Positions 2,397 through 21,514 of a DNA stretch of 36,173 nt are shown here, one piece after another. The translations under genes were made by a program, and so were the position numbers. Numbering within the stretch: the stretch's first letter is position 1; every line of letters starts with the position of its first letter. This DNA comes from a bacterium (GTDB taxonomy: Bacteria; Acidobacteriota; Blastocatellia; HR10): assembly GCA_041640655.1 (NCBI GenBank), contig JBEPZV010000026.1:1-36173 (forward strand), given 5' to 3'. The notes below the pieces were generated by a model. It ran no database searches, was not told the origin of the DNA, and worked only from the letters and a program-made list of their open reading frames with translations.

Positions 2397-2410
2397 AGCC
2401 CCCTCCTTTG

Positions 2411-3589
2411 TTAAAGCCGCGCGACCAAATCGGCGAGTTGTCGTTCGACCAGTTGCAACGCCGAGAAGATCGCCCCGTAGAGTTGCGCGCGATCCTCCAG
2501 GGCCGAGACGACGACCGCCGGTTTGGCCGGAACGGTTCGCGCGATGGTCTCACGAATGGGCTCGGTGAGAAGCTCTCCCGCCAAGCTCACACCTCCCCCG
2601 AGCACGATCATCTCCGGATCTAAGAGCGTGGCCACGTTCGCCGCGGCCGCACTGATGTAGGCCGCGATTTCATCCACGAGCCGTCGGGCCGTCTCGTCAC
2701 CCCGACGGGCCGCCTCGAAGACCGCCTTGGCGTCCGGGGCACGGGATCGCCCCAGGAGCTGGCGGGCGCGCGCCGCCATCGCCGGTCCGGAGGCGCGCAT
2801 CTCCAGAAATCCCAGCTCGCGGAATTCCTCGCGAATCGCCTTCGGATCGAGGAGCATGTACCCGACTTCTCCGGCGGCGTGCGTCGAGCCGCGATAGAGT
2901 TCCCCGTTGATGAGCAGGCCCGCTCCGATTCCCGCGCCGATGGCGATGAAGGCGACGTTTCGGAGCCCTCGCGCGGCTCCGCGCCAGCTCTCGCCCAGCA
3001 CGGCCATGTTCACATCGTTATCCACGTGGACGGGGAGGCGCAGCGCGCTCTCCATCAGCTCGCGGAGCGGGACATCGCGCCAGCCCGGGAGATTCGGGGC
3101 ATGGCGAACGATCCCGCGCTCCACGTCGGTGATGCCGGGAGCACCGATGGCCAGCAGTCGCACATCGCGCCAGCGCACGCCGGCCGTCTTCACCACCTGA
3201 CGGCTGAGCGTCGCGATCTGCGCGACGATGGTGCGGACATAGGGCGGAGACTTCCGCGTCGGCTCCTCCGCGTGCGCGAGGAGATCGCCGTTGAGATCGG
3301 CCACCGCGACGCGCACGCGCGTCCCTCCGATGTCGGCGCCGAGCACATATCCGAAGCGCGCGTTGAAGCGCAGCAGCGTCGGGCGACGCCCACCGCTGGA
3401 GTCCCCGACGCCCTCTTCTCGCAAGAGTCCCGCGCGCAGCAGCTTCGCCACCAGGGCCGAGACCGTCGGCGGACTCAGCCCCGAGCGGCGCGCCAGCTCG
3501 GCGCGCGAGATCACCCCCGAGGCGCGCGCCAGCCGCAACAGCGCGAGCATGTTCAGTTGCTTGAGGAGTCCGTGATTGGCCGGCCCCAT
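2411..3589 (-). CDS. ROK-family transcriptional repressor (XylR/NagC-like)
   Basis: N-terminal wHTH (ISRAELARRSGLSPPTVS...GGRRP) and ROK sugar-binding motifs (GADIGGT, DNDVN, GIGAG, AGEVGY). Start placed at MGPANH (GGAGG upstream), downstream of the predicted promoter; the ORF track extends to 3769. Confidence 0.9.
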   Translation of the reverse strand: MGPANHGLLKQLNMLALLRLARASGVISRAELARRSGLSPPTVSALVAKLLRAGLLREEGVGDSSGGRRPTLLRFNARFGYVLGADIGGTRVRVAVADLNGDLLAHAEEPTRKSPPYVRTIVAQIATLSRQVVKTAGVRWRDVRLLAIGAPGITDVERGIVRHAPNLPGWRDVPLRELMESALRLPVHVDNDVNMAVLGESWRGAARGLRNVAFIAIGAGIGAGLLINGELYRGSTHAAGEVGYMLLDPKAIREEFRELGFLEMRASGPAMAARARQLLGRSRAPDAKAVFEAARRGDETARRLVDEIAAYISAAAANVATLLDPEMIVLGGGVSLAGELLTEPIRETIARTVPAKPAVVVSALEDRAQLYGAIFSALQLVERQLADLVARL

Positions 3590-3626
3590 CGCCTCCGCCG
3601 CCTGCGTGTGCCCGTGCCCGTCCATG

Positions 3627-3669
3627 ACTTTGTTCGGGAACATAATAAACTTTTCCTCGCCCATGTCAA
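3627..3669 (-). promoter_or_regulatory. Sigma70 promoter (TTGACA-16-TATTAT) overlapped by a 25-bp ROK/XylR-like operator
   Basis: TTGACA at 3669-3664 and TATTAT at 3647-3642. The imperfect palindrome ACTTTGTT-CGGGAACAT-AATAAACT at 3627-3651 covers the -10 and start region. Confidence 0.6.
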
Positions 3670-3724
3670 GCCCGGATCGGCGCAGCCCGATCAGGGGAAT
3701 GGCCACCTTGAGGAGTGGGCGGAA

Positions 3725-3785
3725 GAGGCGGAGCGTGACGCCGTCTGCACGAACGCGGCGTGCGACCACACGGATGGGCCGCCCC
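3725..3785 (+). repeat. 61-bp direct repeat, copy 1 (left flank of hairpin array)
   Basis: 53/61 identical to 4439-4499 by manual alignment. Confidence 0.85.
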
Positions 3786-4435
3786 CTTCGGGGGCTTGGG
3801 GATGATCATGCCGCCGTTGTCCTAGGGCTCGCCTGCGGCTCGCCCTAGGCTAGATTCGCACGCCTGCTTCGCAGGCTTGATACGGAAGACGCCGTCATCA
3901 AATGGGCTCGTCTTTGGCTCGCCCTGGGCTAGATTCGCACGCCCGCTCGCGCGGGCTTTGTGTGGGCGCGACCCAACTCTCGTTGTGAGATCAACCCAAT
4001 TCCGTGAGCCCGCCCGCGCGGGCGACCGAATGCAGCCCGGAGCGAGCGAAGCGAGCCCACGTTGTGAAACCGATCCCCTTCCACATGCGAGCCCGCGAAG
4101 CGGGCGTTCGAGTTCGGCCCGGGGCGAGCGGAGCGAACCCACGTTGTGAAACCAATCCAATTCCGCATGTGAGCCTCCGAAGGGGGCGACCGAATGTAGC
4201 CCGGGGCGATCGCGAGCGAGCCCAAGGTGTGAGTCAACCCCATTCCGCATGCGAGCCCGCGAAGCGGGCGACCGAAATTAGCCTAGGGCGAGCGAAGCGA
4301 GCATCATAAGATCACCCCCCTTCCACAGGCGAGCCCCCGAAAGGGGCGTTCGAATTTAGCCTAGGGCGAGCGAAGCGAGCCCTAGGAACGAGAGGCCCCA
4401 ACCAATGTCCAAGCCCGCGCACGCGGGCGGCCCAT
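3774..4435. repeat. REP/BIME-like array of double-hairpin repeats, ~81-bp period, 3 inverted plus 6 direct copies
   Basis: Core AGCCCGC-GAA-GCGGGCG..CGAA..TAGCCTAGGGCGAGCGAAGCGAGCCC. Plus-strand copies start near 4007, 4090, 4172, 4254, 4332 and 4412 (last one partial). Minus-strand copies end at 3796 (partial), 3877 and 3957. Confidence 0.85.
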
Positions 4436-4438
4436 GTG

Positions 4439-4499
4439 GAGGCGGAACGTGACGCCGTCCCCACGAACGCACCGTGCGACCGCGCGAATGGGCCGCCCC
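4439..4499 (+). repeat. 61-bp direct repeat, copy 2 (right flank of hairpin array)
   Basis: 53/61 identical to 3725-3785. Confidence 0.85.
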
Positions 4500-4531
4500 A
4501 TCGCGGACCGGAGGCTCCCCCTCACCCCCGC

Positions 4532-6445
4532 TCATGGACAGCCACAGCCCGGCGGCGTATTCGCCAGATTCTGGTCAACGATCGAGAAGATTCGCGTGGG
4601 CGGAGACACCCTCAACGCTGCCGTGCCCCTTTGCATGGTCAGAAGAATCAACCCCTGCATCAGGTTCCCACCGACATTCCGGAAAGCGATGTACCCACTA
4701 CCCGACTGCAATGAGAACTGGCCCGTGAAGGTCCCCGCCGAGGTCACAAAGCAATAGGTGTTGTTGGTTCTCAACTCCAGACAGTTGCCACTGCCCAGAT
4801 CATCACGGAGCGTGAAAAGCAGCGGTGGACCTGACGGCGGCGCTTCAAAAGCCCCCGCATCGCACAAGGGCCCTTGCGGGCGGCTCACCCCCCGCTGGTC
4901 GGTGCTGACCGGGCTACTACTCAAATCCGTGCAGTCCGTGACCGCATCAATGGCGGAACTGCCCGAGCCCAGCGCGTGGGTCTCGGTGGGTCCGCCGTTG
5001 TTGGCCAGGGGCTGGAGGTTGAGCTGGGGAGAGGTGACCTGCGTGAAGCCCGTACAGCTTCCGTCCGTCGCCAGGTTCGCGCCGGTGGCGTTGAAGGTAC
5101 CGCCCGCAAGCGAACAATTCGCGCCGGTCGGCGCGGTGTTATTGCCCACGATCGAGTTTTTGATGTTGAAGATGCCGGAGATGACTCTTATCCCCCCCGC
5201 GCCTGACGTACCTGCGGAGTTATTGGCAATGGTGACGAAACTGGCATTCACCGTGCCCGCGTTCCAGATGCCGCCAACGTCATCTGAACCGGTACCGCTG
5301 CTATTGCCCGAAATCGTCGTATTGGTGAGATTGAGCGTGCCAGAATTATCAATAGCCCCGCCATCATCGGCGCTGGTATTTCCCGACAGCGTGCTGCCCG
5401 TGATGGTCACCGTGCCGCCTAAGGCGTTGCCGATACCGCCGCCGAAGCTGAGGGCGCTATTTCCCGAGATAGTGCTGTTGGTGATGGTCACCGTGCCGCG
5501 GAAATTGTCGATGCCGCCGCCGACGTCGGCGCTATTTCCCATGAGCGTGCTACCTGTGATGGTCACCGTGCCGACGAAGTTGTAGATGCCGCCGCCGACG
5601 TCGTCGGCGCTATTTCCCATGAGCGTGCTACCCGTGATGGTCACCGTGGCGCCATTGTTGAAGATGCCGCCGCCGGAGTCGTCGGTGCCAGAACCATCCG
5701 CGCAGCCGTTTCGCACCGTCACGTTTTGCAGCGTGAGGTTGCCTCCGCCCTGCACATGGAAGATGCGGAATTCGTTCTGCTCAGCATTGCCGTCGAGGTC
5801 GCATCCGAACCCCATTCCTGTGCTCCGCTGGATCGTCGCCCCGTTGCCTTCAATGGTGATCTGGCTCGTGATGTCCAGATCGTCATTGTTCGCCCCGGAG
5901 TCGGTGGCATGCCCTCCCCCGTCGGCGTCGAGCGAGAGCGTGTAGGTCTCGCCCGACTGAAGGACGATGGTGTGAGGGCCGCCTCCCAGGGCGTTGGCCT
6001 CCATGATCGCTGCACGTAGCGTGCATGTGTGGACAAAGATTGTCACATCCCCTTCAGAAATCGTATATATAGCCTCACATTTACCATCCCCTGGATTAGA
6101 ATCTATAAGGTCTCCTCCAAATGGAGGCTCGAGGCCTCCCAACCTATCGTTCGGGCACGGGTTGAAGGGCTCGACATCTGGCCAGTCCGCTCCGCACCGC
6201 GCAATCACATGTTGCTCGAATTGCTGCTGCTCAAAGCTATCAATCCCTCCCGGCCAGGCGTGACTCACCGGTTCCATAAGCACAAGCACGCCCACCAGCG
6301 CCCTCTTCGCCAAACACTTTCTTTCGCTATCTGCCGCCGAAGATTTCCCCATTGCCCTCATGTCCATTACCCACCTTCCTGTTAAAAGTCTCGCCAGAAA
6401 ATTTCCTCTTAGAATCAGCTTTGACCACGGTGCGTGTTTTGGCAT
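4532..6445 (-). CDS. Secreted/surface beta-helix protein with CSLREA-like domain, GGGI (polymorphic-membrane-type) repeats and choice-of-anchor Q-like domain
   Basis: DSNPGDGKC...CTLRAAIMEANA (CSLREA-type), repeated GGGIxNxxGTVTITxSTxxGNSA, and PLANNGGPTETHALGSGSSAIDA...DQRGVSRPQGPLCDAGAFE (choice-of-anchor Q-type). RBS AAGGAGGT before ATG 6445. Confidence 0.8.
   Translation of the reverse strand: MPKHAPWSKLILRGNFLARLLTGRWVMDMRAMGKSSAADSERKCLAKRALVGVLVLMEPVSHAWPGGIDSFEQQQFEQHVIARCGADWPDVEPFNPCPNDRLGGLEPPFGGDLIDSNPGDGKCEAIYTISEGDVTIFVHTCTLRAAIMEANALGGGPHTIVLQSGETYTLSLDADGGGHATDSGANNDDLDITSQITIEGNGATIQRSTGMGFGCDLDGNAEQNEFRIFHVQGGGNLTLQNVTVRNGCADGSGTDDSGGGIFNNGATVTITGSTLMGNSADDVGGGIYNFVGTVTITGSTLMGNSADVGGGIDNFRGTVTITNSTISGNSALSFGGGIGNALGGTVTITGSTLSGNTSADDGGAIDNSGTLNLTNTTISGNSSGTGSDDVGGIWNAGTVNASFVTIANNSAGTSGAGGIRVISGIFNIKNSIVGNNTAPTGANCSLAGGTFNATGANLATDGSCTGFTQVTSPQLNLQPLANNGGPTETHALGSGSSAIDAVTDCTDLSSSPVSTDQRGVSRPQGPLCDAGAFEAPPSGPPLLFTLRDDLGSGNCLELRTNNTYCFVTSAGTFTGQFSLQSGSGYIAFRNVGGNLMQGLILLTMQRGTAALRVSPPTRIFSIVDQNLANTPPGCGCP
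5390..5672 (-). repeat. Intragenic tandem repeats (~75-81 bp) encoding beta-helix rungs
   Basis: The units starting at 5511 and 5586 are nearly identical in DNA (ATGCCGCCGCCGACGTC...GCGCTATTTCCCATGAGCGTGCTACC.GTGATGGTCACCGTG). GTGATGGTCACCGTG occurs four times. Confidence 0.8.
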
Positions 6446-6472
6446 ACTTTCTCACCTCCTTATTTTTGAAGT

Positions 6473-7255
6473 TTACTCGATTGACAGCAAAGTCTGACGA
6501 CCTACCGCTCGAAGGAAACTTTCCCTCTCTATCCTTCTCACAGAAGCCATTGCCCTCGCTCTCACGGGCTCTTCCAGAAAATCAAACTCCGGCTTTATAG
6601 TGCCGTTGTCCTCGACTTTTAACATGAACGCCGCTACTGCAAAGATCAGAGACTCGCCCTTGTGCCTTACGGCCAGTACTGTATCTTCGTGCCACCCGAT
6701 GTCGAGTTCGAAGTCCGGAGAAGTTTTCGCTTTAAGAATTTTTAGAAGCTCCCCAGTTATTTTCACGGCATTTCCCTGGCTGTGGTAAAAGCTGATGTTT
6801 ATCTCCCTGGCTCTCAGTTCCCCTGAGACGAAGAAGAGTTTTTTAATGTCGCGGGATTTCGCTTTACACGCCTTCAGTGCGGTGCTGGCGGGCAGGTAAT
6901 CAACCCCTCGGGACGTTACTGTCCCAAACCCGAAGGACACTTTGTCGGTACCCTTGATGATCATCCCTATGCTCGCTTGGAAGACCCGATTCAGGATAGG
7001 AGCAGCAATATCCAGACCGACCTTGTCCGTGAGATACCCAGAAACCTCCGGATGAATACCTTCATTCGGACTTCGTAACAGGCGGTCTATGCCATTGTCT
7101 GGGCAGTGGGCCAAGTCTTTGACGGTACCTATGCGGCGCCACTTGCCGTCAACCTTTGCGAGCAAGACACCCAGCAGGCTGCCGGATGTGGCCAGTTTTA
7201 GGGGAGCATAGCCAAGGTCATTGAGAAACTTTGTGAAAGGGTCTTTGCAGATCAT
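6473..7255 (-). CDS. Bacterial gasdermin-like pore-forming protein (bGSDM)
   Basis: 260 aa. N-terminus MICKDPFTKFLNDLGY fits the bGSDM pattern M-x-C-x-D-P-F-x3-L-x3-G-Y with Cys3. Colinear blocks IAAPILNRVFQ, FFVSGELRAREINISF and LIFAVAAFMLKVEDNG resemble the Runella bGSDM as I recall it. Short C-terminal tail; RBS AAAGGAGGT. Confidence 0.8.
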   Translation of the reverse strand: MICKDPFTKFLNDLGYAPLKLATSGSLLGVLLAKVDGKWRRIGTVKDLAHCPDNGIDRLLRSPNEGIHPEVSGYLTDKVGLDIAAPILNRVFQASIGMIIKGTDKVSFGFGTVTSRGVDYLPASTALKACKAKSRDIKKLFFVSGELRAREINISFYHSQGNAVKITGELLKILKAKTSPDFELDIGWHEDTVLAVRHKGESLIFAVAAFMLKVEDNGTIKPEFDFLEEPVRARAMASVRRIERESFLRAVGRQTLLSIE

Positions 7256-7377
7256 CCTGGACCTCCTTTCGGTTTGTTATGGCTTTTCAAACAGGCTCGC
7301 GTCAGGAGAAAGATCACCAGGTAGGCCAACCAAAGAGCCAGGCCGACCCCCACCACGATGCCGACGGATTTATCCAT
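7252..7377 (-). CDS. Small single-pass membrane peptide (41 aa), translationally coupled to the gasdermin
   Basis: Below the ORF-track cutoff. MDKSVGIVVGVGLALWLAYLVIFLLTRACLKSHNKPKGGPG*: a ~21-aa hydrophobic stretch then a basic tail. GAAGGA upstream; stop overlaps the gasdermin start (ATGA). Confidence 0.55.
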   Translation of the reverse strand: MDKSVGIVVGVGLALWLAYLVIFLLTRACLKSHNKPKGGPG

Positions 7378-7867
7378 GCCGGATATCCTTCACCTGTTCC
7401 GCCTCTGGTGGACCGACGTCGCCGACGCTGTCGTTGCAGTCGCCGGCCTCAAAACGGTCCCCGAAATTTTTCGCCTTCGCCGGGATCATCGGAAACTCCC
7501 GGCCTTTCGGTTTTCGGATCCATCGTCAAGATTAAGATTGCCTCTGGGCCGGGAGAGCAATAATTCCTCCGGACGGTATAGACATCCCTCGACCGAGGCA
7601 AGAGCTCATCGGCTCCCGGGAACGTCGTCCTCACCAGCTATGGCGCTTGGGCTGCCCCTGAGCAAGCTTTGTCAGAGCCGCGTGCGTTCTGGCGTTCGCT
7701 CCCTCACCACCAGGGCAACGTCCGCATGAGCGGCGGCACAGACTCCGGCGTCGGAGTCCCTCGACACCCTCAAGGACCTTCGCTCATTGTTTGTTTCAGA
7801 TGGAATTTTGCAGGGGCGTCACCCATCATGTCCTCCCTCGATGAGTTTCGACCACCCGACGGCGCCT

Positions 7868-7898
7868 ATTTTGCCCTTTTTTTTTTTCGCCCTGTCAA
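7868..7898 (-). promoter_or_regulatory. Putative sigma70 promoter with A11 homopolymer in a 19-nt spacer
   Basis: Minus strand: TTGACA-GGGCG-A11-GGG-CAAAAT, pointing toward the gasdermin operon. Confidence 0.45.
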
Positions 7899-8016
7899 GA
7901 GGAAAATTTCCAGACCAGTGCGGCGCCCGGCCGCCTTGGACGAACGCGCGGCGCCCGGAGATGGCGAAGGGGTGCGCTTTACAACGGGGGGCGACTCGAT
8001 TTACCATGCCGGAGGT

Positions 8017-9453
8017 ATGACGAAGGTGGGCATGGTCAGTCTCGGCTGTCCGAAGAATCTCGTGGACAGCGAGGTCATGCTGGGGCTGCTCGTGCGCGAG
8101 GGGTTCGCGCTCACGACGGAAGCGGCCGAGGCCGATATCCTCATCGTGAACACGTGCGCCTTCATTGATCCGGCCAAGATGGAATCCATCGAGACGATCC
8201 TCGAAATGGCGCGCTGGAAGGCGCACGGGCGCTGCCGCAAGCTCATCGTCACCGGCTGCCTGGCCGAGCGCTATCGCGAGCACCTGCAGCGGGAGTTGCC
8301 CGAGGTGGATGCGCTCGTCGGGACGCGAGAGATCGAGCGCATCGTCGAAGTGTGCCGCGACGGCGAGCGGGGAACGACGACCCGATCGCGACGTCGCCTT
8401 CCGATCCTCCCCCTGGCGCTCGCCTCTCGGTACGTGGAGGATGCGGCGCGTCCGCGTGTGCTGGCGACGCCGCCCTTCTCGGCGTATCTCAAGATCGCCG
8501 AGGGGTGCGATCACACGTGTTCCTTCTGCATCATCCCGACGCTGCGCGGGCCGTTTCGCAGCCGTCCCCTGGAATCCTTGCTTCGAGAGGCGGAGGCCCT
8601 GGCCGCGCGCGGCGTTCGCGAGCTGATCCTCATCGCGCAGGACACGACGCATTACGGTGCGGACTTGGGGATGAAGGAGGGCTTGGCCGCGCTCCTGCGG
8701 GCGCTGGCGCGGATTGAGGGGATTCGATGGATTCGCTTCCTCTACGGCTATCCGAATCACGTGAGCGAGGCGGTGATCGAAGCCGTCGCTTCCGAGGAGA
8801 AGGTGTGCGCCTACTTCGATATCCCCTTTCAGCACGCGAGCGCGCGTCTGTTGCGCCTCATGCGTCGAGGGGGGACGCGTCGCTCGTTCGAACGTCTCGT
8901 GGAGCGGATCCGGCGCCGTATCCCGGACGCGACGCTGCGGACCACGTTCATCATTGGATTCCCCGGGGAGACGGAGCGCGATTTTCGCGAGCTGCTCGAC
9001 TTCTGCCGGACCGTCGAGTTCGACTACGCGGGAGCATTCCTCTACTCGGATGAGGAGGGGACGGCGGCCTTTGGCTTGACCGCGAAGGTGTCTCGGGAGG
9101 TCGCGCGCGAGCGCTTGAGACGGTTTCAGCGCGAGCAAGCGCGTATCGCTTCTCGGCGGAGCCGTCGGTGGATCGGCCGAACGGTCGAGGTTCTGGTGGA
9201 GGGGAGCGTCGAGGGGGAGGCTTCCGATCGTCGTCCGCGCGCTTCTCCGAGGCCGCCTCTGCTGCGGGGGCGGATGGCCGGACAAGCGCCGGAGATTGAT
9301 GGCCGCGTGATCCTCGATCCGGGGGATGGGGTAGAATCGGCCCTGGAGCCACGACTTCCTCAGCCGGGGGAATTCGTCTCGGTCGAGATCGTGGACGCCA
9401 TCGGGTGTGATCTGATCGGGCGGGTGTGCGCGCCCGGGGAGGCTTCGCGATGA
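8017..9453 (+). CDS. rimO: Ribosomal protein S12 methylthiotransferase RimO
   Basis: SLGCPKNLVDSE, VNTCAFID, YLKIAEGCDHTCSFCIIP radical SAM motif, C-terminal TRAM (APEIDG). GGAGGT RBS before ATG 8017. Confidence 0.95.
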   Translation: MTKVGMVSLGCPKNLVDSEVMLGLLVREGFALTTEAAEADILIVNTCAFIDPAKMESIETILEMARWKAHGRCRKLIVTGCLAERYREHLQRELPEVDALVGTREIERIVEVCRDGERGTTTRSRRRLPILPLALASRYVEDAARPRVLATPPFSAYLKIAEGCDHTCSFCIIPTLRGPFRSRPLESLLREAEALAARGVRELILIAQDTTHYGADLGMKEGLAALLRALARIEGIRWIRFLYGYPNHVSEAVIEAVASEEKVCAYFDIPFQHASARLLRLMRRGGTRRSFERLVERIRRRIPDATLRTTFIIGFPGETERDFRELLDFCRTVEFDYAGAFLYSDEEGTAAFGLTAKVSREVARERLRRFQREQARIASRRSRRWIGRTVEVLVEGSVEGEASDRRPRASPRPPLLRGRMAGQAPEIDGRVILDPGDGVESALEPRLPQPGEFVSVEIVDAIGCDLIGRVCAPGEASR

Positions 9454-10034
9454 ACATGCGCGCGGCTGTTGCGAGCCTCGCTCACGTTCGGCGTCTCTCC
9501 GAAGGCGGCACGGCATCTCTGGCCGATCGCGTTGCGTGGTGGATCGCCGCCGGTGGGGGAGCCGGTCTGGCGCCGATCGCTCCCGGGACAGTTGGGGCTC
9601 TTCTGGGACTCGGACTCTTCGCGCTTGGCTCCTGGTTCGAGCGCGCGCTGGGCGTCGTTGGGGTGAGCTGGATCATCGCCGGTGTTCTCTTGGGCGTTGG
9701 CACGTGGGCGTCTTCCCGAGTGGTGCGGCTCTCGGGAATGGCGGATCCTCCGCAGATCGTGGTGGACGAGATCGTCGGTCAGTTCCTCGCGCTGCTCTTG
9801 AGCGTCGGTGGTCGTGCCCTCTTGCGAGGAGCCAGCGAAGGATCGGTGTCGTGGCCGGGATGGGGGATGCTGTGGGCGAGCTTCGGACTCTTTCGCCTCT
9901 TCGACATCTGGAAGCCGTATCCCATTCGGCGAGTTGAACGGTGGAAGGGGGGGATGGGGGTCATGGCGGATGATGTGTTGGCGGGGATCTGCGCGGGACT
10001 CGCGACCGTTCTCCTAGTCGAGATCATCCCGTGA
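9450..10034 (+). CDS. pgpA: Phosphatidylglycerophosphatase A
   Basis: G-x-A-P-x-APGTVG, DPPQIVVDEIVG, FRLFDIWKPYPI and GVMADDVLAG motifs. ATGA overlap with rimO. Confidence 0.93.
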   Translation: MNMRAAVASLAHVRRLSEGGTASLADRVAWWIAAGGGAGLAPIAPGTVGALLGLGLFALGSWFERALGVVGVSWIIAGVLLGVGTWASSRVVRLSGMADPPQIVVDEIVGQFLALLLSVGGRALLRGASEGSVSWPGWGMLWASFGLFRLFDIWKPYPIRRVERWKGGMGVMADDVLAGICAGLATVLLVEIIP

Positions 10035-18315: not shown

Positions 18316-19395
18316 ATGGGAGCTTCGGGATGGAGGGATGTGTATCAGCGCGTGAGGGCATGGGCGGAGGGGACGTCGTTTGTCCTGGGGATCTTCGGGG
18401 AAGCGATTCGGTCCTGGCGCGAGCTGCGGATGATCGTGAGGGGGTTGCTCTGGACGGATCATGTCGTGTTGGCGCATTTGATCGTGACGCGGCGCTGTAA
18501 TCTCTCCTGCGGCTATTGCAACGAGTACGATCGGGTTTCGGCGCCGGTGCCTGTGGATGTCTTGCGGCGGCGGGTGGACAAGCTGGCGGAGTTGGGGGCG
18601 AGCATTATCACGATCAGTGGGGGAGAGCCGCTCTTGCATCCGGAGTTGGAGGAAGTCATCCGGCACATTCGGCGGCGAGGGATCATCGCCGGGTTGATCA
18701 CGAACGGATATTTGCTCACGCGCGAGCGGATTCGGCGGTTGAATGAAGCGGGGTTGGAATATTTGCAGATCAGCATTGACAACGTGGAGCCGGACGAGGT
18801 GTCGAAGAAGAGCCTGAAGGTGCTTGATCAGAAGCTCGTGTGGTTGAAGGAGTTGGCGCGCTTCAAGGTGAACATCAACACGGTCCTGGGCAGCGGGGTG
18901 CGCAATCCCGAGGATGCGCTGGTGATCGCGCGGCGGGCGGTCGAGCTGGGATTCTCCTGTTCGGTGGGGGTGATTCACGACGAATGGGGGCGGCTGCGAC
19001 CGCTCTCGGAGCGCGAGCGGGAGATCTTCCTGGCCGTGCAGAAGCTCGGGAAGTGGAGCTACAGTCGGGTGAACCGATTCCAGCGGAACCTGGTCGAGGG
19101 CAAGCCCAACCGATGGCGCTGTCGAGCAGGCGCTCGGTATCTCTATGTCTGCGAGGATGGGTTGGTGCACTACTGCTCGCAGCAGCGGGGGTATCCGGGG
19201 GTGCCGCTGGAGACCTACACGCGGGAGGATATGCGGCGGGAGTATTTGACCGAGAAAGCCTGTGCGCCCTACTGCACGATCTCCTGCGTGCAGCAGGTGG
19301 CGGAGTTGGACAACTGGCGCGATCCGCAGACGCTGGGGGTCAAGGTCTGGCGGATGCCAGTCTCTTCGGTGTACGAGGTGCGGCGCGCCGAATGA
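18316..19395 (+). CDS. Radical SAM protein with C-terminal auxiliary Cys (SPASM/twitch-like) domain
   Basis: [24 protein letters not shown], and C-terminal CRAG...VHYC...CAPYCTISC. Start uncertain (18307 or 18316). Confidence 0.88.
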
Positions 19396-19444
19396 GGGCG
19401 GCCGCCCCGGTTCGGGAGGTCTTCACGGAAGGAGGGGACGAGGT

Positions 19445-21514
<2,070 letters not shown>

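Follow-up and report, generated by a model that had tools for sequence, protein, structure and literature searches.

A divergent bacterial gasdermin gene without an adjacent protease, paired with a β-helix gene in a genome-specific insertion of a hot-spring acidobacterium

Bacterial gasdermins (bGSDMs) correspond, among prokaryotes, to the proteins that execute pyroptosis, and we describe here a gene for a divergent member of this family in a contig of 36,173 nucleotides (JBEPZV010000026.1 of assembly GCA_041640655.1, referred to throughout as the window) from an acidobacterium of the Blastocatellia (lineage HR10). The gene, whose product we call P0001, occupies 6473..7255 of the minus strand, within an insertion of 4.2 kb (3687..7920) that is specific to this genome and placed between the gene of a ROK regulator and rimO. 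From left to right, this insertion holds an array of ~80-nt repeats, a gene for a β-helix protein, the gasdermin gene, a doubtful open reading frame (ORF) of 41 aa, and ~540 nt of DNA upstream, at its right end, in which we found no convincing gene. Judged by sequence models and predicted fold, the product of the minus-strand gene is a genuine but unusually divergent bGSDM.

The gasdermin ORF runs for 260 codons from ATG to stop exactly between 6473 and 7255, with the stop codon at 6473-6475 and a GGAGG ribosome site 6 nt 5' of the ATG, and the plus strand over the same positions is interrupted by many stops. An initial annotation, made from the window alone, had proposed a 260-aa ORF at these coordinates: the ORF exists, but the strand had been missed, and it is actually the minus. 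The start given there, MICKDPFTKFLNDLGY, is the same in the minus-strand translation, which begins MICKDPFTKF and places the codon of a cysteine, Cys3, at 7247-7249. The low GC remarked on at the time (25/60 at 6421-6480) proved exact on a recount, and the gene as a whole, at 51.2%, also falls under both its left (65.6%) and right (63.3%) flanks; its GC3 is 0.59, against 0.7-0.85 in most neighbouring genes.

Evidence for the family assignment comes from both directions of search. The PADLOC bGSDM model (PDLC02986) matches residues 2-220 (E=1.5e-18, 65.2 bits, profile positions 1-223 of 257), and this is the sole bGSDM locus that PADLOC finds in the genome. As a single sequence searched with phmmer against all PDB chains, P0001 finds the Vitiosangium bGSDM (8sl0/7n51, E ~5e-4, residues 2-217) and nothing credible beyond it; the Runella chain is not matched at E<=10 in that search, but Runella 7n52 does match at the level of profile and of fold. 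Conversely, a profile built from P0001 and its closest relative P0003 only, and run against 1.84 billion representative proteins, returned 12 matches at E<=0.001, namely P0003, P0004 (264 aa, E=2.8e-46), a 62-aa fragment and nine proteins of 261-272 aa. Each of these nine scores 1e-48 to 1e-70 on the PADLOC bGSDM model, as canonical bGSDMs do, and the relationship therefore holds in both directions. Two candidates were set aside: the 62-aa fragment (P0005) is identical to the tail of P0001 and is not an independent clade member, and a Cytobacillus match (L012, 37% over 73 residues) is spurious, being part of a nucleotidase-like ORF of 1435 aa. Word-index searches, confined to proteins of similar length, found one relative from P0001, two from a 12-row alignment and eleven from a canonical bGSDM (P0006).

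The predicted structure points the same way. AlphaFold, given an alignment of 24 rows (three clade members, 19 canonical bGSDMs and two bGSDMs from genomes of the same phylum), returned a model with a pLDDT of 82.2 and a pTM of 0.80, whose 15 strands agree with the β-strand character suggested by the initial annotation. In a Foldseek search of the PDB this model ranks the inactive Vitiosangium bGSDM 7n51 first (E=2.5e-15, TMq 0.73), followed by Runella 7n52 (E=1e-11), Bradyrhizobium 7n50 and the Vitiosangium pore forms 8sl0/9a84, with Trichoplax, mouse GSDMA3 and GSDMD and human GSDMB lower down; ranks 1-15 are gasdermins throughout. A single-sequence model of the same protein in the ESM Atlas, independent of the AlphaFold alignment, matches a Bact_GSDM cluster best, with a TM of 0.70, the next clusters being GSDME and pejvakin at 0.55. 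The structural match that had been asked for as a check, a gasdermin N-terminal domain with its twisted β-sheet core, is hence found in the predicted structures.

The protein also has the expected size and layout: it is 260 aa long, within the ~240-280 aa of bGSDMs, and carries no large C-terminal domain but a short tail after a flexible loop. Cys3 stands in the conserved cysteine column of the family, invariant in 12/12 rows of the smaller alignment and present in at least 90% of the rows of the larger one, with 24, in which the two same-phylum rows start MGN... and are without that cysteine. The PADLOC match ends at residue 220, and the remaining residues 221-260 (6476..6595, minus strand) form the tail, presumed to be an autoinhibitory peptide. 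Both the N-terminal cysteine and the short tail had been claimed earlier, and both appear in the alignments and in the AlphaFold layout. Within the tail, residues 227-243 (6527-6577, minus strand) form a loop with pLDDT <50, predicted to be disordered and followed by a better-predicted C-terminal end. This loop is the best-conserved stretch of the clade formed by P0001, P0003 and P0004. Its clade sequence is EEPVRARAMASVxRxE and 12/17 of its positions are invariant across all three proteins; between P0001 and P0004, the two most distant members, 13/17 loop residues are identical, compared with 82/220 in the body (residues 1-220). Canonical bGSDMs show no conservation at the loop positions in the 12-row alignment. 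Such conservation, exceeding that of any other part of the protein and yet found in a loop predicted to be disordered, would be expected where a specific partner reads the site, and the pattern, as far as alignment and model go, fits a recognition or cleavage site; we presume that the loop serves as one.

With three members among the 1.84 billion proteins searched, the clade is rare. P0001 and P0003 are 68% identical, and the ORF is intact in all three. A maximum-likelihood tree of 24 sequences groups the three together with 100/100 support on a stem of 2.8 changes per column; few canonical bGSDMs are sampled in this tree, which shows divergence and not a rooted history.

Immediately downstream of the gasdermin gene, across a 27-nt spacer with an AAGGAGG ribosome site (6446..6472, minus strand), lies a same-strand gene at 4532..6445 for a protein of 637 aa (P0002), and the arrangement looks operonic. 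By its NCBIfam matches and its look-alikes in the ESM Atlas, P0002 would be an exported right-handed β-helix protein of the CSLREA/choice-of-anchor Q type: it combines a hydrophobic leader with a CTLRAAIMEAN motif and many GGGIxN...TVTITxSTxxGNSA repeats, scores 76.7 bits on choice_anch_Q (NF041518, cut-off 25), and resembles the Chlam_PMP, Beta_helix, CSLREA and choice-of-anchor Q clusters. On CSLREA_Nterm (TIGR04214) it reaches 15.4 bits, below the cut-off of 25, though the CTLRAAIMEAN motif is visible. There was no match in Pfam, PADLOC, PHROGs or the PDB, and no protease signal in these or in NCBIfam. At 5358-5685 the gene contains four tandem repeats of ~78 nt (67-72% identical to a reference copy) which encode successive turns of the helix; joints of metagenome contigs skip 123 and 159 nt within these repeats, and repeat number may therefore vary between strains. 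A complex prediction of P0002 (residues 66-637) with the gasdermin scored 0.00, with controls not run, and counts neither way.

The one other clade locus that could be read, that of P0003 (L011, identical to L017), repeats this pairing. It lies on a 4.5-kb contig, which a 3.4-kb metagenome contig extends by 495 nt, and the neighbourhood of P0004 falls outside the comparison. The gene downstream of P0003 (product P0025) is on the same strand, follows a 20-nt spacer, again has an AAGGAGG, and begins with a classic signal peptide; the contig ends 347 aa into the protein, where it reads ...GKCSLRAAVMEANA. P0025 scores 31.6 bits on CSLREA_Nterm (cut-off 25), the contig ending before any choice_anch_Q region, and its N-terminal 310 residues have no match in Pfam or the PDB. 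BLASTP aligns P0002 and P0025 over 42 residues (E=6e-5), and their N-terminal regions differ. The surroundings differ too: GC is ~45% at the P0003 locus and 51-60% at that of P0001, and the genes upstream of P0003 are gatB, a low-GC ORF and a membrane LuxR-type regulator, unlike those of the window. In the 3.1-Mb genome of the window we count 2 choice_anch_Q and 4 CSLREA loci over cut-off.

The P0003 contig, which carries a gene for a Sigma70_r4/GerE-type regulator as well, is filed under an archaeal (Bathyarchaeota) metagenome-assembled genome (MAG). We found no gasdermin match in 100 other genomes of that archaeal family, and this 4.5-kb contig may have been binned wrongly. A further contig of the same MAG (L018, 37% GC), with a weak choice_anch_Q match, has no overlap with the P0003 contig (L017).

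The insertion emerges from comparing window positions 2400-9500 with six genomes of the same genus (G001-G006). In G002 (flanks 95% identical) and G005 (93%), the ROK flank, up to 3686, and the rimO flank, from 7920/7946, meet directly or share a few bases; in G001, G003 and G004 the two flanks are 27-36 nt apart, and in G006 they lie on different contigs. Since the flanks abut or nearly abut in the relatives, 3687-7920 is an insertion, and it was inside these 4.2 kb that the gasdermin reached this hot-spring bacterium. The gasdermin gene itself was found in none of the six genomes (0/6), nor in 34 further relatives. Both junctions carry an imperfect direct repeat of ~45 nt (3652-3695 and 7880-7925), the right copy being a degenerate duplicate of the 5' end of the ROK gene (…CGCCC(A)TGTCAAG…). 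The repeat may be a scar left behind by site-specific or homology-driven integration; the insertion has no integrase and no tRNA.

At the left of the insertion, the array at 3720..4500 is made of ~80-nt units in both orientations (Tandem Repeats Finder (TRF) period 82; repeat families D3, D4 and D6), with two plus-strand and about five minus-strand units between the two copies of a direct repeat of 61 nt (3725-3785 and 4439-4499). The Rfam family RF01687 (Acido-Lenti-1) is matched at 4332-4386 on the minus strand with 37.2 bits (gathering score 37) and at 3821-3877 on the plus strand with 24.4 bits. Copies of this repeat family number in the dozens in this genome and its sister genomes, and in four sequencing runs the summed contig depth over the array is ~5-40x that of the flanks. 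A 142-aa ORF within it (3822-4250, minus strand) has no family match and is probably not a gene. On the other side of the gasdermin gene, the 41-aa ORF at 7252..7377 (minus strand) would encode a single-pass membrane protein: it begins MDKSVGIVVGVGLALWLAYLVIFLL, has one strongly hydrophobic helix (best 19-residue hydropathy window 2.7), and its stop overlaps the gasdermin start (ATGA). Pfam gave weak, chance-level rows only. At the second clade locus (L017) no equivalent ORF lies upstream, the ribosome-site stretch AAACC.AAAGGAGGT being all that the two loci share in that region, and for lack of such a counterpart we consider the 41-aa ORF doubtful as a gene.

The same DNA occurs on a 437-kb metagenome contig (99.8% over 17 kb), and 20 runs of hot-spring or sediment metagenomes from 16 studies contain 92% or more of the words sampled from 4500-7950, although 12 of these 20 may themselves be the source of this DNA. 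Among the contig joints listed, none passes over the insertion as a whole, nor does any listed piece extend across all of it. Contigs without a single difference extend over 5882-8175, past the right junction, in two runs of different studies not flagged as source. These, together with the intact frame in three clade members, indicate that the gasdermin gene is maintained. No RNA run is listed among those holding gasdermin DNA, which has no bearing on expression. That the protein may be thermostable, as the initial annotation proposed, is suggested by the hot-spring labels of these metagenomes only.

How would such a gasdermin work? In the Johnson et al. preprint (10.1101/2021.06.07.447441), the passages available describe bGSDMs in which Cys3 is palmitoylated, a ~20-aa inhibitory peptide caps the palmitoyl tunnel, a cut falls in a loop of ~12 aa just before this C-terminal peptide, and truncation of the tail is toxic; a protease gene adjoins 43/50 bGSDMs and 7/50 are without one. 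By analogy, full-length P0001 would be a soluble, cytoplasmic, autoinhibited precursor, in which Cys3, probably self-palmitoylated and buried, and the last ~15-35 residues would together keep the pore-forming body closed. A cut in the exposed, clade-conserved loop (~227-243) would remove the tail and free the body, which could then enter the cytoplasmic membrane, assemble there into large, oligomeric ring pores and kill the cell; pore formation, autoinhibition, cleavage, trigger and a role in phage defence are all carried over to this protein from its relatives. As no protease stands beside the gasdermin, its activator should be sought elsewhere in the genome or in a phage, and we judge it probable that a non-adjacent protease, encoded by host or phage, activates this tail-autoinhibited pore former. 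Host candidates exist: the genome has 4 CHAT and 6 Trypsin_2 loci, all on other contigs, and the four large CHAT-domain proteins (open frames of 959-1333 aa, on contigs C27, C30 and C34, two of them sharing one contig) could supply the protease. Peptidase_C14 was not found in the genome, which is 89.8% complete.

Several results weigh against this reading, some of them bearing on the identity of the protein and others on its setting. P0001 scores 37.8 bits (E=1.6e-9) on the NCBIfam model prok_gasdermin (NF051890), far below the cut-off of 100, and the Pfam copy searched has no match for P0001 or P0003, despite a precomputed PF26164 (Bact_GSDM) label on the latter. With the two closest sequences only, AlphaFold gave an unusable model (pLDDT 33.2), and the good model depends on the 21 canonical bGSDMs in its alignment. 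As for the setting, a protease gene is lacking both inside the insertion and next to it, the gasdermin being followed upstream by the 41-aa ORF, 540 nt and then rimO; among 401 genomes of the phylum, the bGSDM model matches four including this one, one of these matches being weak, and the two clear canonical bGSDMs both have a trypsin-like gene immediately downstream, whose products show a visible HV motif and, in one case, a weak MarP-family match. Nor is the neighbourhood one of defence genes: for the 30 other ORFs of the window, PADLOC gave weak, generic radical-SAM/oxidoreductase rows only and no defence system. Finally, a protease acting in trans leaves the conserved β-helix partner unexplained. 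Most of what was claimed in the initial annotation nevertheless stands, although, besides the strand, it had overlooked the lack of a protease, the genome-specific insertion and the conserved β-helix neighbour. The bGSDM identification is upheld by PADLOC, the clade profile, AlphaFold with Foldseek, the ESM Atlas, the N-terminal cysteine and the short tail; "divergent" is apt, given the NCBIfam score, the null Pfam result and the long tree branch, and the same three results make it plausible that the protein would be annotated as hypothetical.

Could the gasdermin and the exported CSLREA/choice-of-anchor-Q protein instead make up an independent module of two genes that lacks a dedicated protease? 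The gasdermin could serve the large β-helix protein as a factor for lysis or release, or the β-helix protein could sense an envelope event and license the gasdermin; on either option, the clade would be a separate gasdermin lineage with an exported β-helix protein as conserved operon partner, coupling pore formation to a protein of the cell surface. We entertain both the module and this broader view tentatively, and on the present evidence rather doubt them. A same-strand gene with a CSLREA motif and a hydrophobic leader follows the gasdermin after 20-27 nt and an AAGGAGG at both readable loci, which otherwise differ in GC, in upstream genes and in gasdermins that have diverged to 68% identity, and it occupies the slot held by the protease in canonical operons. 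CSLREA/choice_anch_Q genes are so rare in the genome that their repeated adjacency is unlikely to be chance. However, there are two loci only, perhaps derived from one ancestral pair, and with common ancestry the two count as one observation of conservation; the second partner gene ends 347 aa in, and the partners share little beyond the CSLREA motif. Moreover, both partners have apparent export leaders, so their exit from the cytoplasm would require no pore, and once exported they would hardly reach a cytoplasmic gasdermin, which for its part keeps the cysteine and the conserved tail loop that are hallmarks of protease-gated autoinhibition. A new β-helix partner, seen at two loci, is suggestive.

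The missing protease and the lack of defence neighbours could also mean that the gasdermin is an orphan passenger, severed from its protease at insertion and now silent or inert and decaying, and its foreign composition (51% GC, and a GC3 of 0.59 against 0.7-0.8 in its neighbours) and its absence from all six same-genus genomes would suit such a history. We think this unlikely, as the frame is intact behind a strong ribosome site, the protease-less layout recurs at a second locus, the tail loop is conserved across the clade, and difference-free contigs cover the gene in the two non-source runs of different studies. Cleavage-independent opening has been described for some eukaryotic gasdermins, and the term "cleavage-independent activation" is used for gasdermins in reviews. 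Perhaps, then, the loop is a bait for a phage protease, such as a prohead protease, or the pore opens without cleavage on a physical or redox cue; that no cognate protease is present, and that the tail loop is conserved yet predicted to be disordered, would be in keeping with either. No relative was found among viral contigs, PHROGs gave no match for any of the five proteins searched, and we regard both variants as very improbable. Activation by a protease encoded at a distance is the reading that we favour.

To our knowledge, every case of a bacterial gasdermin studied so far is activated by an adjacently encoded protease, and comparison with the described systems shows where the present one departs from them. 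Its best match by sequence and by fold, the Vitiosangium bGSDM (7n51 inactive; 8sl0 and 9a84 active oligomer or pore), has a similar length, a cysteine in the same column and a short C-terminal peptide instead of a large domain; it differs in that identity in the structural alignment is ~18%, that the tail of P0001 is unrelated and clade-specific, and that the window gene has no neighbouring protease. The bGSDM of Runella zeae (7n52) shares the fold and, in the passages describing it, a cysteine in the N-terminal region, a loop and an inhibitory peptide of ~20 aa, and is there cut after Leu247, at a Leu-Gly site, by an adjacent Roc-COR-CHAT protease, whereas the loop of P0001 is Arg/Ala-rich and the four CHAT genes lie on other contigs. 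Closest in layout are the seven protease-less bGSDMs of Johnson et al. (10.1101/2021.06.07.447441), likewise without a neighbouring protease; the neighbour here is a conserved CSLREA β-helix gene, and theirs are not described in the passages of that source. As for P0002, its match to choice_anch_Q, its repeats and its structural look-alikes are those of the CSLREA/choice-of-anchor Q proteins (TIGR04214, NF041518; Chlamydia Pmp-type PF02415). We found no paper linking gasdermins to CSLREA or choice-of-anchor proteins among the best 15 of 49 matches, and a search by phrase found none discussing protease-less bGSDMs. As a protein, then, P0001 is a bGSDM by sequence model, predicted fold, size, cysteine and tail; as a system, it stands without an adjacent protease and outside a defence island, unlike the bGSDM-protease systems described, in which the gasdermin gene adjoins that of a caspase-like, trypsin-like or subtilisin-like protease.

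The other genes of the window are housekeeping ones, encoding the ROK regulator, the RimO-like protein, PgpA, CinA, glycogen synthase, thioredoxin, PurA, and proteins of sulfate activation and oxidases. At 19262-21514 (plus strand) lies the gene of a radical-SAM protein of 750 aa that carries an HMPTM-type zinc ribbon and for which PADLOC lists weak pVip rows (E ~1e-13); these look like generic radical-SAM similarity, and not a viperin.

What would this locus mean for the gasdermin family? If P0001 is simply cut by a CHAT protease of its host, it is an ordinary though divergent member of a known family. With this clade it could be tested directly whether a gasdermin can be gated in trans, by the protease of an invader, or by a partner that is not a protease, and the hot-spring provenance of the window DNA makes P0001 a candidate heat-stable gasdermin for structural and pore-assembly work. 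Should the lineage with a β-helix partner prove true, it would represent a gasdermin logic unlike the protease-gated ones that extend from bacteria to mammals.

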